A stretch of 63,905 bases of DNA, the filler included, from Malassezia furfur (taxonomy: Eukaryota), in NCBI GenBank assembly GCA_052055015.1. It is 7 parts of 7 records of this genome, joined end to end, with 100 filler letters (N's around TTAATTAATTAA, not from the genome) between each part and the next. Parts side by side here need not be neighbours in the genome. Positions count along the whole stretch, not along the records: positions 9,363 to 18,592 come from JBQJIT010000431.1; 6 more parts are not named here. One strand, written 5' to 3'. The notes under the pieces were generated by a model. The model saw only the letters and a program-made list of their open reading frames with translations. It had not been told where the DNA came from and did not search any database. Within the stretch, counting starts at the first letter, position 1. Each line of letters opens with the position of its first letter. Positions 10,987 through 45,358 of this stretch are shown in pieces. The position numbers were made by a program, and so were the translations under genes.

Positions 10987-13227
10987 CTACGACGGGTGCA
11001 GCGCAAGCGGCTGCGCGCTATAGACGTCCAACGTGCGGCGCGTGCCAGGCGGGCTCACAAGCACCGTATAGTTTCCCGCGGGCAGCATGCGCATCTGCAG
11101 CGCAACACACGTCGACACAGGCGACTCGGGCGCCGCCGAGGCCAGGGCCGTATGCACATCGTACACAGACACGTGCAGCGCCTCGGCCTCGTCGCTACTC
11201 ACCACCAGCTCGACGCTCATCGGGCGCTCAAGCATAAGCTCCCAGCGAGTATCGCTGATTGCCGTGCGGTGGTACATCCCGGCGCCCTCGGCGGGCAGGC
11301 GCTCCACGTCGATCGGTGCGCTGCACTCGACCGTCAGTGCAAAGCGCGCATGCGCCGGCGCGAGCGTAGACAGGATCAGGGTATAGTCGCCAGGCTGGAC
11401 CGCCGGCACGTCGCACAGCGCTAGGCCTCGTGTGTAGGGGCCACTGCTCGTGATGAGCGCCGGCGGGCCAAGGTAGGTGATACGCTGCTTGCCGCGGACG
11501 AGCGCAAGTTGGACCGGCAGCTGCGCCTGCGTCGTCACACGCACCACCAGCTGCGGCAGGCTGCCCGGGACCGAATGCACCATGACAGCGTACTGGGGAT
11601 TGTGCCGGAACCGCGCCGAGAGCGCATGCCCGCCTTCGCCCTGCCACGCGCCGTGGAGCTGCGCACGATGCGTCAGCATCGCCGGCATGCGCTGCAGCGT
11701 AAAGGGACTCTGCGAAAAAACGCGCAGCGAGTACAACGGAAAAGGGCGCATTGCGGATCCATGCCGCGACACAGCCAGCGTGTAGTGTGCAGCATCGGCC
11801 TGCGCGGTGATGCGCAGCAGCGTGTGTCGACCATCGACGTACACGCCCATCTCGCCCCCGTGCTCTACATGCGCAAGCTTGCGCTGGGCGTTGGTCTGGA
11901 AGGCATGCACGGCAATGTACTCGGGCGTCTCACGCGCATCGTACATCCGGTGCCGCTCCAGATGCACAAACAGTTCCTGCGAACCCGGCGGGAGCTCGAG
12001 ATGGTACTGGTCGCTCACTGCCGTCTCGACATGGTCGGGGCATACTCCGGCGTCGGCGCTCCAGTCCCACGACGCATGCGCCGCATCGGTGTGCCCGAAC
12101 GCGTCCGGGTTCCAGTTCACGGCAATCGTGTCGAAGAGCGCACAGACCTCTTCCCATGCACACGCCAGTATGGCAGGGGTATCGTCCACGGCAAACGGCG
12201 CGGATGCCCCTTGCGTCTTCCACGGATTGACGAGCGTCACAGTCCGTTCGCCGTTGCGTTCGTCGAGCGACAATATCGCATAGCAGTGGAGCGGAATAAA
12301 GGTGCGCAGCTGATCCGAGACAGTGGTATCCACCACGGCGCCAGTGCCGAGTGACAACAAACATGTGCCTTGTTGCCATGCACCGAGCAGGCGCTGCCAC
12401 GTCTTTTCGCGCTGAAAGCCGGGCGCATGCAGCGCAATGTGCTCCGGAATCCAGCCCGTGAGCATGTACAAGTCCGCAGCAGCGTCTGAGCCATGGAACG
12501 CATAGCTCGATCCGTGCGCAACCAGGAACGCCTTCTCGAGCAGCGCAGGCCATAGCTGAGGCGCCTCGCACGTCGAGGCACACACAAGGTTCCCCTTCGC
12601 ATCGATCGGAAGTTCGTCGTTGATAGTGATGCAGCGCCTCGCCCCATCGACAAACAACGACACAGCGTACACACCGTCGGCGCTTTGGCATGGATCCCCG
12701 CCGTGACGCGGATGCAGCGCACCATGCGCTAGCTGTGTATGCCACCGCGCGTCGTATTCCGCGGCAACTTCGAGCGCAGCAACAAAGGAGCAGTCTGTTA
12801 CAGCTCCCTGTCGAATATCGCCGCCGCGCACACGCACGTCGCGGCGAAAGACGGGCAGGGCGCTGCGTCCATACGAAGCGCCTTGCTCCACCTGCAACGG
12901 CGACAGAGCCGGATTCGACAGCGGCGCACCACTATGTGGCCAGAGCGGCCAGTTTTGTTCTTCATGCGCCGACAATGCAATGCGCGCACCCAGAGGGTGA
13001 TTAAGTGCGCGCTTGAGGCGCTCAGCGCGAGAGAGTAGACGCGAAGCAAGACGCTTGTGTTGCTCGGCGTCAGCGGCGTGCGCCTTGTTGGGTATACGAA
13101 GCAGATCCAGGTAGGCCTGTGCAGCGTTGGTATACAGCCGGAGCGCCTCGGCATAGGCGCCCTCCAGCTCCTGCTGCACCGCCAGCGACGCACACGCCCG
13201 TGCGCAGTCCACACCCCCAACCACCAT
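10987..13227 (-). CDS. palB: Calpain-like protease PalB/Rim13 (MIT + CysPc + calpain III domains)
   Basis: QGAVTDCSFVAAL catalytic Cys, WPALLEKA, LTGWIPE, HCYA His, NPW Asn, NPQY motif. Confidence 0.88.
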   Translation of the reverse strand: MVVGGVDCARACASLAVQQELEGAYAEALRLYTNAAQAYLDLLRIPNKAHAADAEQHKRLASRLLSRAERLKRALNHPLGARIALSAHEEQNWPLWPHSGAPLSNPALSPLQVEQGASYGRSALPVFRRDVRVRGGDIRQGAVTDCSFVAALEVAAEYDARWHTQLAHGALHPRHGGDPCQSADGVYAVSLFVDGARRCITINDELPIDAKGNLVCASTCEAPQLWPALLEKAFLVAHGSSYAFHGSDAAADLYMLTGWIPEHIALHAPGFQREKTWQRLLGAWQQGTCLLSLGTGAVVDTTVSDQLRTFIPLHCYAILSLDERNGERTVTLVNPWKTQGASAPFAVDDTPAILACAWEEVCALFDTIAVNWNPDAFGHTDAAHASWDWSADAGVCPDHVETAVSDQYHLELPPGSQELFVHLERHRMYDARETPEYIAVHAFQTNAQRKLAHVEHGGEMGVYVDGRHTLLRITAQADAAHYTLAVSRHGSAMRPFPLYSLRVFSQSPFTLQRMPAMLTHRAQLHGAWQGEGGHALSARFRHNPQYAVMVHSVPGSLPQLVVRVTTQAQLPVQLALVRGKQRITYLGPPALITSSGPYTRGLALCDVPAVQPGDYTLILSTLAPAHARFALTVECSAPIDVERLPAEGAGMYHRTAISDTRWELMLERPMSVELVVSSDEAEALHVSVYDVHTALASAAPESPVSTCVALQMRMLPAGNYTVLVSPPGTRRTLDVYSAQPLALHPS

Positions 13228-13327
13228 GGCCGCAAGTTGTGGAGGTGGAGCCAACGGCCACAAAAATGCCCATGTGATTCGACACTCAAATCGTAACACG
13301 GCAGGTGCCAACCCAACCCACCTCTAT

Positions 13328-13627
13328 ACCTGTCATGGGTGCAACGAAGGAATGAATCCTCCTGTGGCGCGCCCCACGCAATGTTAGCCGTTCCTATGGA
13401 TGATTGAGGTTGGCTGGCGCACTGGCGTGCTTCACAGCATGTCGGTCCCAGCTGTAAACGGGGGAGACTAAGGAGCCGTTCTGCGGCTTGTAGGATCAGT
13501 CGGTACTGCCGAGCACTCCACTCAACCGACCTCAGTCGCACGTATTCGTAGGGCTCTCGGTAAGCAGGGAGCACTTAGCTTGAAAGCGCGCCCAGGCCTC
13601 ATGAGGATTCAAACTGTTTCTTTTTTT
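13328..13627 (+). ncRNA. Structured Pol III RNA, probably signal recognition particle (SRP/7SL) RNA of non-canonical basidiomycete type
   Basis: 5' ACC-TGTCAT-GGGT (Alu UGU-motif-like); nested long-range helices TGAATCCTC/GAGGATTCA, GGCGCGC/GCGCGCC, CCTATGGAT/ATTCGTAGG, GATTGAGGTTGG/CCGACCTCAGTC with G-U pairs favouring the + strand; CAG-TCGG..CCG-AGCA helix-8-like motif; T7 terminator 13621-13627. Confidence 0.65.
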
Positions 13628-13652: not shown

Positions 13653-14768
13653 ATGATTCCTGCCTGGAGGGCGAGCATCCGTGCGCCAGGTTGTCGCGCG
13701 TTTGCAGCGCACGCAACACTATGCACAAGCGCTGTCCGGCAAAGTGCATGGCCCACACCACCGCGCACGTCCGACGTGAGCATGAATACCTCAGGCCCCG
13801 TCTCGGTGGCGAGCCTTACGCGGCAGATGGCTGAGAAGAAACCCATCGTGTGCATAACCGCTTACGACTACCCCACTGGTCTGGCTGTCCGTGCGGCCGG
13901 CGCTGAGATCTGTCTTGTGGGCGACTCACTAGCGAATGTGGCATTGGGACATTCGTCCACACGGAGCCTCTCGCTCGAAGCGATGATTCACCACAGCACC
14001 GTCGTCCGTGATGCAATTCGGGCGAACGACTTGAAATACGACTCCCTATGTCCCCCTGAACCCCTCCTTGTTGTGGACATGCCGTTTGGAACATGCGAAG
14101 TTTCCGTCGAGGATGCAACGCGTAACGTGCTGCGGGTTGTGCAAGAGACGCAAGCACAAGCAGTCAAAATTGAGGGCTCGCGCGAGCTGGTGCCCCTCGT
14201 GGAGAAGCTCGCTACGTACGGGATCTCGGTCATGGCCCATGTCGGCTTGCAGCCGCAACGCTTTGGCGATGCCGCCTCGCTCCGTGTTCAGGCAGCACGG
14301 GCGGATAGCGCCTTTAAGCTGTTCGAGGACGTGCTTGCGCTGCAAGAAGCAGGCAGTTTTGCGATCCTGCTCGAGTGCGTACCATCGCGCATTGCCGAGG
14401 CGATCAGTGAGCACGTATCAATCCCTGTCATTGGAATTGGCGCAGGGCCTCACACGCACGGCCAAGTGCTGGTGGGTAGTGACCTGGTGGCCGATCTCGA
14501 GAGCCCTGCGCATGTCTCTGCGGCGCTGCGTACCCAGCCCCAGGACGTGCAAGGCGTGGATACACCAACCGAGTGGCCGGCGCCGCCCAAGTTTGTGCGC
14601 TCTTTTGCTCCTATGAGTTTAGGCGCTCTACGTATCCAGGCCTTCCGTGCATTTGCCGATGCAGTGCGCGCACGCACCTTCCCCGAAGTCACCCGCGAAG
14701 CGTACCGCATCAAGTCCGAGGAATTGGCCAAATTCCGGGCGATGCTGGAGGCGCGTCATAGCTCCTAA
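13653..14768 (+). CDS. ECM31: 3-methyl-2-oxobutanoate (ketopantoate) hydroxymethyltransferase, PanB family
   Basis: ITAYDYP, LVGDSL, VVDMPFG, VKIEG, HVGLQPQ, IGIGAG motifs; mitochondrial-type presequence. Confidence 0.93.
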   Translation: MIPAWRASIRAPGCRAFAAHATLCTSAVRQSAWPTPPRTSDVSMNTSGPVSVASLTRQMAEKKPIVCITAYDYPTGLAVRAAGAEICLVGDSLANVALGHSSTRSLSLEAMIHHSTVVRDAIRANDLKYDSLCPPEPLLVVDMPFGTCEVSVEDATRNVLRVVQETQAQAVKIEGSRELVPLVEKLATYGISVMAHVGLQPQRFGDAASLRVQAARADSAFKLFEDVLALQEAGSFAILLECVPSRIAEAISEHVSIPVIGIGAGPHTHGQVLVGSDLVADLESPAHVSAALRTQPQDVQGVDTPTEWPAPPKFVRSFAPMSLGALRIQAFRAFADAVRARTFPEVTREAYRIKSEELAKFRAMLEARHSS

Positions 14769-21552: not shown

Positions 21553-21666
21553 CGCGTGGGCCAACCACCAAAAAAAAAAAAAAGTGGAGGACTGACTTCG
21601 CTGTTTTCGCGCGCACATTTTTCTTCTTCCTACTCGCTCGTGCCTTCGGACCCCGCAACGACGACC

Positions 21667-22848: not shown

Positions 22849-22976
22849 ACCGTTGGTAGGCAATCTATACCCAGTGCTATGAACATGCACAACCAAGGGG
22901 TGGCTGAAGCCATGGCACTGCGCTGTAAGGTGCCGAGCGTTCAAGTATGCACGGAGTATGATGCCCACTAGCCGAT

Positions 22977-23066
22977 GACTTTATAACTCAGTTGGTTAGA
23001 GTACCACGTTAACAACGTGGAAACGGTTTACCGTGGAAGTCCCCGGTTCGAGCCCGGGTAAAGTCA
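22977..23066 (+). tRNA. tRNA-Val(AAC) with probable 16-nt intron 23015-23030
   Basis: Acceptor stem GACTTTA/TAAAGTC, D-arm, CCACG-TT-AAC-A anticodon arm, GGTTCGAGCCC T-arm, TTTTT terminator downstream. Confidence 0.9.
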
Positions 23067-23616
23067 TTCTTTTTGTCCAGCTCCGGAGCTTAGAGATGCC
23101 ACGAGTTTTTTATTTTTATTTTTATTTTTTTCCGTATCCGTCTCATCAGATTACATAATCCCAGCGGCCGCGGGGCAGAAGGCCCCCCCAACCCGTGGTA
23201 TATGCATACGTGACGTGAATTTAGCAAACTATGCATCAGATACGCATGACTTGAACGCGTTCCCCACGCAGAATTACTTGTTTAGGAAAAAACAAACCTG
23301 CATCTCGGCGGTTGTTTTGGCGGGGGTGCGCGGGAATGGCAAGCGGCGCGCGTCACGCAAAACAACCGTATGCGGCTTGCCGATCGCATTGGACGGACTA
23401 GATCATGCCATATGCAGGCGGGTACTGGGTATGAATCCGGCGGAGCGCGTTGGATCGGCCTGGCTTGCATGCCCGGAAATATATCGGATGCGTGTTTGTT
23501 GTTAACTCTTGCCTCAAGTCGGTAAGGCTTTCGCAGTGTTCCCTACTTGAACCGGGTTTTGCTCTTACCATCGCAACCCTTCCCACCTCGTTGCACGAAC
23601 TTTTCAATACTATACC

Positions 23617-43854: not shown

Positions 43855-45147
43855 ATGCTCCGACGAAGCGTGGGCGCGGGCGCCCTGGGCGCGCTGCGTG
43901 CCGCGGTGCGTGGACCGCGGTGGGTGTCGACACTGCGCAAGATCGAGGCGGACCCAGATGCCGCGCGCGAGGTGCCGACGCCGCTCCTGTTTGTCGCCGC
44001 GCCCGCATGGACGGGCGGGAAGGATGCGCAGACGTACGTGGGCCGCTGACGCAGGCAATTTGCGCCGCTGCTCGCGCAGGTACGGCGCCATGGCTTTACC
44101 TCGCTGCTGCTCGACCTCGATGTGCCGCGCGGACCCCCGCGCGATGCCCTCGCGCGGCTCGAGGCCGAGATGGCGGCGACGCTGGCACACCCGCCGCAGG
44201 ACGTCGGACCCGTGCCGTTCCCCCCGGCGCTCGTGGCGCTTGGGCCGGTGTGTGCGGTGGCCGAGGCGTACGCGTCGTCGCACCCGCTGACCGCGCTGCA
44301 GCTCATCAACCCTCCGCTGTCGATGCAGCGTGCCGTCGAGGCCCACCCCGAGCTGTTTGGCGAGGCGCCGCTGCCCGAGTTCGACTTTGAGGCGCACTTC
44401 CCCGTGCGTGTTGTGTGGCTGCGCGAAGAGCTGGTGCGGCACGCGGACGCGGGCATCCCGTGGTACGAGGTGCACCGCATCGAGCACGCGCGCGAGGAAG
44501 AGGCCGACGCGAGTTTGGACCGCTACGCATGGGCGTCGATGGACGACGGTGCGGACGAAATGGTGCAGTGGCTCGAGGACGAGGCCGGCGTGTATGTCGC
44601 AGAGGGCTTAACGGCAGGTAGGCACGGCCAGGCAAGCGAGGGCCTCGCGGAGGCGGCGGCCGAAGGCGCCGAGGGGGCCGAGGGAGCCGAGCAGGCCGAG
44701 CGGGAGGCGAGCGCGGCGTACGTTGCGCCAGGTACCGTGCCTGAGTGGTTCGCCCGGGGTGAGTATGCGTTCGCGCCCGACAACTCCAAAAAGATGCCCG
44801 TCGTGCTGGACGAGCGCGACTTGGAGGAGCGGTTCATCCGCGGCTCCGGTCCCGGCGGCCAGGCGATCAACAAGCTCGCGACCAACGTTGAGCTGGTACA
44901 TACGCCGACCGGCATACGCATCACGAGCCAGCCGACGCGCAGTCGCGAGCAGAACCGCGTCGCGGCGCGGCGGACGCTGTCGCAGCGGCTCGAGTGGCTC
45001 ATCAAGAAGGACTGGGCACCGACGCCCCGCGGTGCATCGCGCGCCCTCGCCCCCAGCGTGCTTGCCTCCCAGTGGGACAAGGCACGGCGGCGCAAGGCAA
45101 AGAAGAAGAAGAAGCAGCGCCGGCGCGCCGCCGACGCCGCGCCGTAG
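43855..45147 (+). CDS. Mitochondrial protein with a degenerate alpha/beta-hydrolase-like domain followed by a GGQ release-factor domain (C12orf65/MTRFR-like); intron 44034-44054 and alternative intron 44592-44617/44621
   Basis: Arg-rich presequence; DLEERFIRGSGPGGQAINK....V.L.H.PTGI......TRSREQNR and a basic C-terminal tail. Confidence 0.7.
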
Positions 45148-45358
45148 CGCCGTAGCATCCTCCCGCCGGAGGCGCATAGTTCCCAGGTCCCACGTGCATC
45201 AATCCCCGCCGGCGCGGCGCGGCGCCGTGTTGCTCAACACGCAACGCGCCTCGCCNNNNNNNNNNCGGCGGGAGGATGCTACGGCGCTACGGCGCGGCGC
45301 GTTTTTGTGCCGACGACCCTGGCGAGGCGCGTTGCGTGTTGAGCAACACGGCGCCGCG
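45135..45358. repeat. Two interleaved perfect inverted-repeat pairs around a 10-N gap
   Basis: 45135-45168 is the reverse complement of 45266-45299 (34 nt); 45218-45255 is the reverse complement of 45321-45358 (38 nt). Confidence 0.9.

Follow-up and report, generated by a model that had tools for sequence, protein, structure and literature searches.

A candidate non-canonical SRP RNA gene in the spacer between palB and ECM31 of a Malassezia genome

An unannotated stretch of about 300 nt, lying in the spacer between a divergent MIT-calpain (palB-like) gene and the ketopantoate hydroxymethyltransferase gene ECM31, raises the question of whether it encodes a structured RNA and, if so, of which family. 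A previous sequence-only reading had suggested a non-canonical signal recognition particle (SRP) RNA at positions 13328–13627 (+ strand) of a 63,905-nt stretch of DNA, here called the window. Our analysis leads to the same answer: we consider it probable that the spacer holds the SRP RNA gene (7SL/scR1-type) of a Malassezia yeast, either M. furfur itself or one very closely related to it, in a non-canonical basidiomycete form. Coordinates of the candidate, its parts, and its neighbours are collected in Table 1.

Table 1. Features of the candidate locus, in window coordinates, with the evidence on which each assignment rests.
Feature	Position	Strand	Basis
Whole candidate SRP RNA gene	13328–13627	+	rod-like fold, purine start, T7 end
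Helix 2-like 5' hairpin ACCUGUCAUGGGU, reduced Alu domain	13328–13340	+	mean pair probability 0.78
Helix 5, 5' strand	13346–13410	+	block probability 0.57–0.99
Weak helix 10-like hairpin in helix 5	13380–13392	+	probability 0.16
Helix 6-like arm, expected Srp19 site	13412–13453	+	probability 0.89–0.98
Helix 8-like arm, expected Srp54 M-domain site	13459–13528	+	basal stems ~0.5, tip 0.99
Inserted hairpin in helix 8 asymmetric loop, 17 nt	13473–13489	+	probability 0.97
Symmetric-loop core and tip of helix 8	13497–13515	+	fold, sequence
Helix 5, 3' strand	13529–13623	+	fold
Helix 11-like hairpin in helix 5 3' strand	13553–13572	+	probability 0.73
T7 run, likely RNA polymerase III terminator	13621–13627	+	rarity of T7+ runs
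palB/Rim13-like gene	10987–13227	-	746-aa ORF with MIT and calpain (Peptidase_C2) domains
ECM31, ketopantoate hydroxymethyltransferase	start Met at 13782	+	public protein record

The host can be placed through the downstream neighbour. In protein comparisons, the ECM31 product is 98% identical to that of M. furfur and 88% identical to that of M. brasiliensis, with identity falling to 56–59% for M. sp. CBS 17886 and M. caprae, to 52% for M. cuniculi, and, among the matches listed, to 46–51% for proteins of Ustilago, Sporisorium, and Moesziomyces. On the 98% identity to the M. furfur protein, we place the host in Malassezia (Basidiomycota, Ustilaginomycotina), nearest to M. furfur. G+C content near the locus is about 60–67%. 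ECM31 also has an upstream in-frame ATG at 13653, which would add 43 residues (13653–13781) to the protein; the public record starts at 13782 instead, and if the upstream ATG were used, coding would begin only 26 nt past the T run of the candidate.

Folding of the + strand yields a rod of nested long-range helices—13346–13372 paired with 13586–13623 (26 bp in four blocks) and 13393–13410 paired with 13529–13552 (18 bp)—that ends in three apical hairpins, at 13421–13446 (UCAC loop), 13473–13489 (UCU loop), and 13500–13512. Pair probabilities of 0.87–0.99 are given for the main helices, and those of the helix 5 blocks alone span 0.57–0.99. The predicted folding energy of the + strand is -119.3 kcal/mol (z -2.56), which was equalled by 2 of 200 shuffled sequences and by 0 of 200 in a second shuffle set, as compared to -101.3 kcal/mol (z -1.10; 25 of 200 shuffles as good) for the - strand. 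Moreover, G-U pairs make up 15 of the 102 predicted, and these become mismatches when read on the opposite strand. The rod, the apical hairpins, the preference of the G-U pairs for the + strand, the terminal run of seven Ts, and the position between palB and ECM31 had all been described in the sequence-only reading, and each was recovered here.

The limits of a transcript can be proposed from the DNA itself: it likely runs from A13328 to a point inside the T run, for a length of ~295–298 nt. Runs of seven or more Ts occur three times in the window (both strands, 127.8 kb), where Markov simulations lead to an expectation of 0.45, and one of the three is the run at 13621–13627; within the candidate RNA itself there are no runs of four or more Ts. 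The promoter evidence counts against the SRP reading. A scan with consensus motifs found no TATA box and no well-placed A or B boxes at the candidate; its matches were imperfect and lay in unusual places—within the RNA, a B-box-like GGAATGAATCC at 13349–13359 (+22; three mismatches to the consensus), a second B-box-like element, GATTCGACACT, at 13276–13286, about 50 nt upstream of the RNA (two mismatches), and an A-box-like site at 13415 within it (one mismatch). Either B-box-like element (13276 or 13349) could form part of a TFIIIC-type promoter. Scans for bacterial-type promoters and terminators found 0 sites of each kind, in keeping with a eukaryotic host.

Could such a fold arise without any RNA gene? 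The spacer might simply be the shared promoter/5' UTR of two divergent genes, folded by chance, with the T run serving as a promoter poly(dT) tract. Several measurements are compatible with this explanation. When adjusted for G+C content, the folding energy of the candidate ranks 19th among 636 real 300-nt genomic windows (z -2.0), such that energy alone is not exceptional, and its nesting depth is matched by 12 of 200 shuffles. Individual motifs are equally unremarkable: across both strands of the window, the helix 8-like core motif occurs 21 times (21.2 expected) and the core with an outer helix four times (4.3 expected), while hairpins with a UGUNR loop number 70 against 67.6 expected. Other T runs in the window also look promoter-like, for example a run of 14 Ts at 21570–21583 (- strand), just upstream of an apparent coding region; it probably represents a promoter poly(dA:dT) tract, and shows that a long T run here need not be a terminator. 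Given that single motifs are common by chance and that energy does not set the candidate apart, the signal of the candidate lies instead in the combination and order of its features—a UGUNR hairpin at the very 5' terminus, paired ends that reach into a rare T7 run, and a helix 8-like element placed as the second apical arm. The joint occurrence of these ordered features with the absence of internal T4+ runs, strand-specific G-U pairing, and a helix 8-like motif with outer helix (~0.01 expected per 300 nt on one strand, from 4.28 per 127.8 kb) argues against a chance fold, as does the agreement with Malassezia entries in a published table considered below. We therefore regard the absence of an RNA gene as distinctly unlikely.

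The published basidiomycete SRP RNAs provide the closest standard of comparison. Dumesic et al. (2015, PMC4605306) purified the SRP of Cryptococcus neoformans, whose RNA is 280 nt long with a purine first and poly-U last, and predicted 152 basidiomycete SRP RNAs. The size, purine 5' end, and poly-U 3' end of the candidate, with its ends taken from the DNA, agree with this description, as they do with the ~280–300 nt of the described C. neoformans RNA and the M. globosa and M. sympodialis predictions. In the Alu domain, both helix 3 and helix 4 are described as broadly missing from basidiomycete SRP RNAs and UGUNR as kept in a loop (PMC4605306). Here, UGUCA at 13331–13335 matches UGUNR and is located in, or at the edge of, the loop of the 5' hairpin, helix 5 begins 5 nt after that hairpin, and helices 3 and 4 are absent. 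Helix 5 is long, as in the described RNAs, comprising 44 bp in blocks at 13346–13410 and 13529–13623. For helix 6, the published description points to an adenosine that is conserved as the third nucleotide of the loop (PMC4605306); the helix 6-like arm of the candidate is capped by a UCAC tetraloop (13432–13435) in which that position is A13434. Counting against the assignment, no clear counterpart is seen for the 5e loop, a 3-nt asymmetric loop in helix 5 that is described as diverse in fungi (PMC4605306): near the junction, the only asymmetric helix 5 loop is a 3'-side bulge of 6 nt, GCACGU at 13538–13543, which on the predicted fold is a possible 5e/5f-type loop.

For helix 8, the sequence-only reading had noted a helix 8-like CAG..AGCA element that is preceded by an extra stem-loop and lacks a GNRA loop, and had stated that basidiomycete SRP RNAs carry an altered helix 8 with stem-loop insertions; the first statement matches the core, tip, and hairpin in our fold, and the second is borne out by the published account, in which the asymmetric loop may contain zero, one, or two inserted helices or be truncated, and the insert of C. 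neoformans is 17 nt (PMC4605306). In the candidate, the 5' strand of this loop consists of ACUA, the inserted hairpin, and a single A, while the 3' strand is A13520 alone; a GGA/UCC stem comes next, followed by a 4x4 internal loop. In this symmetric loop, C13497, A13498, and G13499 face G13513, C13514, and A13515, placing A13498 opposite C13514 and G13499 opposite G13513 (pairs assigned from position). The A-C pair is invariant in all predicted basidiomycete SRP RNAs, whereas the neighbouring guanosine, also kept here on the 5' side, is changed in four named species (PMC4605306). Table S4 of the same paper records a single inserted helix for M. globosa and M. sympodialis, and a symmetric loop that lacks the 1-nt insert; the candidate likewise has a single insertion and a symmetric loop left at 4x4. 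This likeness is one of described features rather than of sequence. M. furfur is not among the Ustilaginomycotina rows of Table S4 that were consulted. Taken together, the candidate shares with the described basidiomycete RNAs the UGUNR loop, helices 5, 6, and 8, the A-C pair with its adjacent G, the absence of helices 3 and 4 and of the 1-nt insert, and invisibility to canonical SRP models. The Malassezia host and the agreement with Table S4 thus lend support to the non-canonical basidiomycete reading that had been proposed. One point of the fold weighs against it, namely that the basal stems of the helix 8-like arm reach a probability of only ~0.5.

That invisibility is evident from covariance model searches, which the sequence-only reading had proposed as a check and which returned no SRP match. 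With Rfam 15 at the gathering score, no SRP family was found in the whole window, tRNA being the sole family detected, and the SRP models (RF01502 Fungi_SRP, RF00017 Metazoa_SRP, and others) did not match the candidate even with a limit of E<=10, whether 551, 311, or 81 nt were searched. The only match at E<=10 was mir-4435 (E 9.4; 13674–13747, - strand), which lies outside the candidate RNA and which we consider a chance match. The lack of a match counts against the SRP reading; the same failure of standard covariance models is reported for SRP RNAs across the whole basidiomycete phylum (PMC4605306).

The same searches bear on two other identities for the RNA. One is a known RNA polymerase III product of similar size, RNase P or RNase MRP RNA, for which the length and the T-run terminator would be suitable. 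RNase P and MRP RNAs have a branched architecture. By contrast, the candidate is a single long rod with paired ends, and no Rfam family of any kind, RNase P and RNase MRP included, matches it at E<=10; this identity appears highly unlikely. The other is a real, structured product of RNA polymerase III, ~300 nt long but distinct from SRP RNA, that is, an undescribed Malassezia non-coding RNA that happens to resemble a rod. In its favour, no SRP covariance model recognises the candidate, helix 8 lacks a GNRA tip, and no clear 5e loop is seen. Weighing on the other side are the elements arranged in SRP order (UGUNR hairpin, helix 5, helix 6-like arm with adenosine at loop position 3, helix 8-like CAG/AGCA arm), the lone insertion that agrees with the published Malassezia SRP RNAs, and the phylum-wide failure of standard models described in PMC4605306, on the strength of which we judge a non-SRP transcript of this kind to be unlikely.

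To look at the distal part of helix 8 separately, we built a covariance model from bacterial sequences. Among 121 genomes sampled from one phylum, 118 had an RF00169 match, and 51 of these matches (the 31 best-scoring and 20 lowest-scoring) supplied 29 distinct proteobacterial 34-mers, for a model with 1.48 bits per position. Applied to the whole window, it gave 14 matches at E<=10, none of them at 13493–13519, and applied to the 300 nt of the candidate alone it gave five weak matches, none corresponding to the helix 8 tip. Such a narrow, sequence-specific model is a weak test, and we view its miss as a failure of the narrow model, while still counting it, lightly weighed, as a negative. Set beside the bacterial 4.5S (RF00169) helix 8, the candidate has the same succession of a 4-pair stem, a 4x4 loop with CAG facing AGCA, a 3-bp stem, and an apical loop, and it keeps all seven symmetric-loop columns (C, A, G / A, G, C, A) that are invariant in the 29 bacterial sequences. 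It differs at the fourth 5' loop position, where U replaces the bacterial G or A, and in a U-C mismatch at a place taken by U-G or C-A in the bacterial sequences. A further difference is at the tip. Whereas the bacterial helix ends in a G..A tetraloop, the candidate has a 3-bp CGG/CCG stem (probability 0.99) capped by a UACUG pentaloop (13504–13508), or, if U13504 and G13508 pair, by an ACU triloop; both invariant tetraloop columns are missing, and the fourth loop position is a U instead of the adenosine of a GNRA-type loop.

Ascomycete SRP RNAs (RF01502; Schizosaccharomyces pombe, Saccharomyces cerevisiae scR1) resemble the candidate in other respects, according to the published descriptions used here. 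They share its reduced Alu domain, UGUNR hairpin, and absence of helices 3 and 4, and small extra helices of the helix 10/11 type are common in their helix 5, as in the candidate. On the other hand, their helix 8 is canonical and without an inserted hairpin, and their models give no Rfam match to the candidate at E<=10.

If the candidate is indeed an SRP RNA, its parts can be assigned provisional roles. RNA polymerase III would start at or near A13328 and stop in the T7 run, releasing an RNA of ~297 nt. A reduced Alu domain lacking helices 3 and 4 would be made up of the UGUCA-bearing 5' hairpin and the paired ends, providing the Srp14/Srp21 site for elongation arrest. Helix 5 would be the rod's long spine, and Srp19 would be bound by helix 6 at its distal end. 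For helix 8, the expected partner is the M domain of Srp54, contacted through both the symmetric loop (C-A-G / G-C-A) and the asymmetric loop. The extra hairpin would leave the asymmetric loop at the place where basidiomycete Srp54 proteins carry an insertion in the M domain, a basidiomycete-specific insertion that the published work positions at the site of this hairpin (PMC4605306). A further, more tentative proposal, to which we lean slightly less than to its opposite, concerns the tip: with a UACUG pentaloop, or a U-G-closed ACU triloop, in place of GNRA, the Malassezia S domain might have a remodelled or missing contact between helix 6 and helix 8, in addition to the inserted hairpin.

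How much of this is new can be gauged from the literature. The candidate is most likely the M. furfur-type orthologue of the published class and not a new class of RNA, and the published set of 152 sequences may well contain a near-identical one. The non-GNRA tip of helix 8 may be the single feature that is undescribed: the words 'tetraloop' and 'GNRA' each occur zero times in the main text of PMC4605306, which discusses neither a UACUG tip nor a 6-nt helix 5 bulge. A literature search, judged by titles and abstract openings, found among the papers listed no work on Malassezia SRP RNA, and nothing on the GNRA loop of helix 8 in fungal SRP RNA. A helix 8 pattern with 20 specified bases had no matches in metagenome contigs and none in viral contigs; its single match in a prokaryote genome falls at the end of a 403-aa ORF in a Pseudomonadales MAG, has no accompanying Rfam match, and is attributed to chance. 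A metagenome search for the locus based on ECM31 recovered three loci at 38–39% identity, too distant in our view to be close relatives.

SRP RNA is universal, and no knock-out could be obtained in Cryptococcus. Since the candidate has no Rfam 15 match at the thresholds tried, an annotation pipeline relying on those models would miss the locus, and marking it fills an annotation gap for a skin-associated Malassezia. The candidate further provides a case from Malassezia of the single-hairpin variant of helix 8, and its non-GNRA tip is of interest for the assembly of Srp19 and Srp54 on basidiomycete SRP RNA.

Two other features of the window deserve mention. A tRNA-Val (AAC) within 22976–23130 spans ~90 nt, compared with a model of 71 positions, and so probably contains an intron; its B box, at 23045, is perfect, and the gene is followed by a T5 run at 23070 and then by four more runs of T5–T7 up to 23125. 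Elsewhere, at 45135–45358, where several long ORFs meet, two perfect inverted repeats are interleaved in the order A-B-A'-B'—A at 45135–45168 with A' at 45266–45299 (34 nt, 100%), and B at 45218–45255 with B' at 45321–45358 (38 nt, 100%). On each of the two strands, no other part of the window deviates as far in folding (z -5.25 and -4.36) as this region, which could be an assembly artefact or a rearrangement of the template-switch type.
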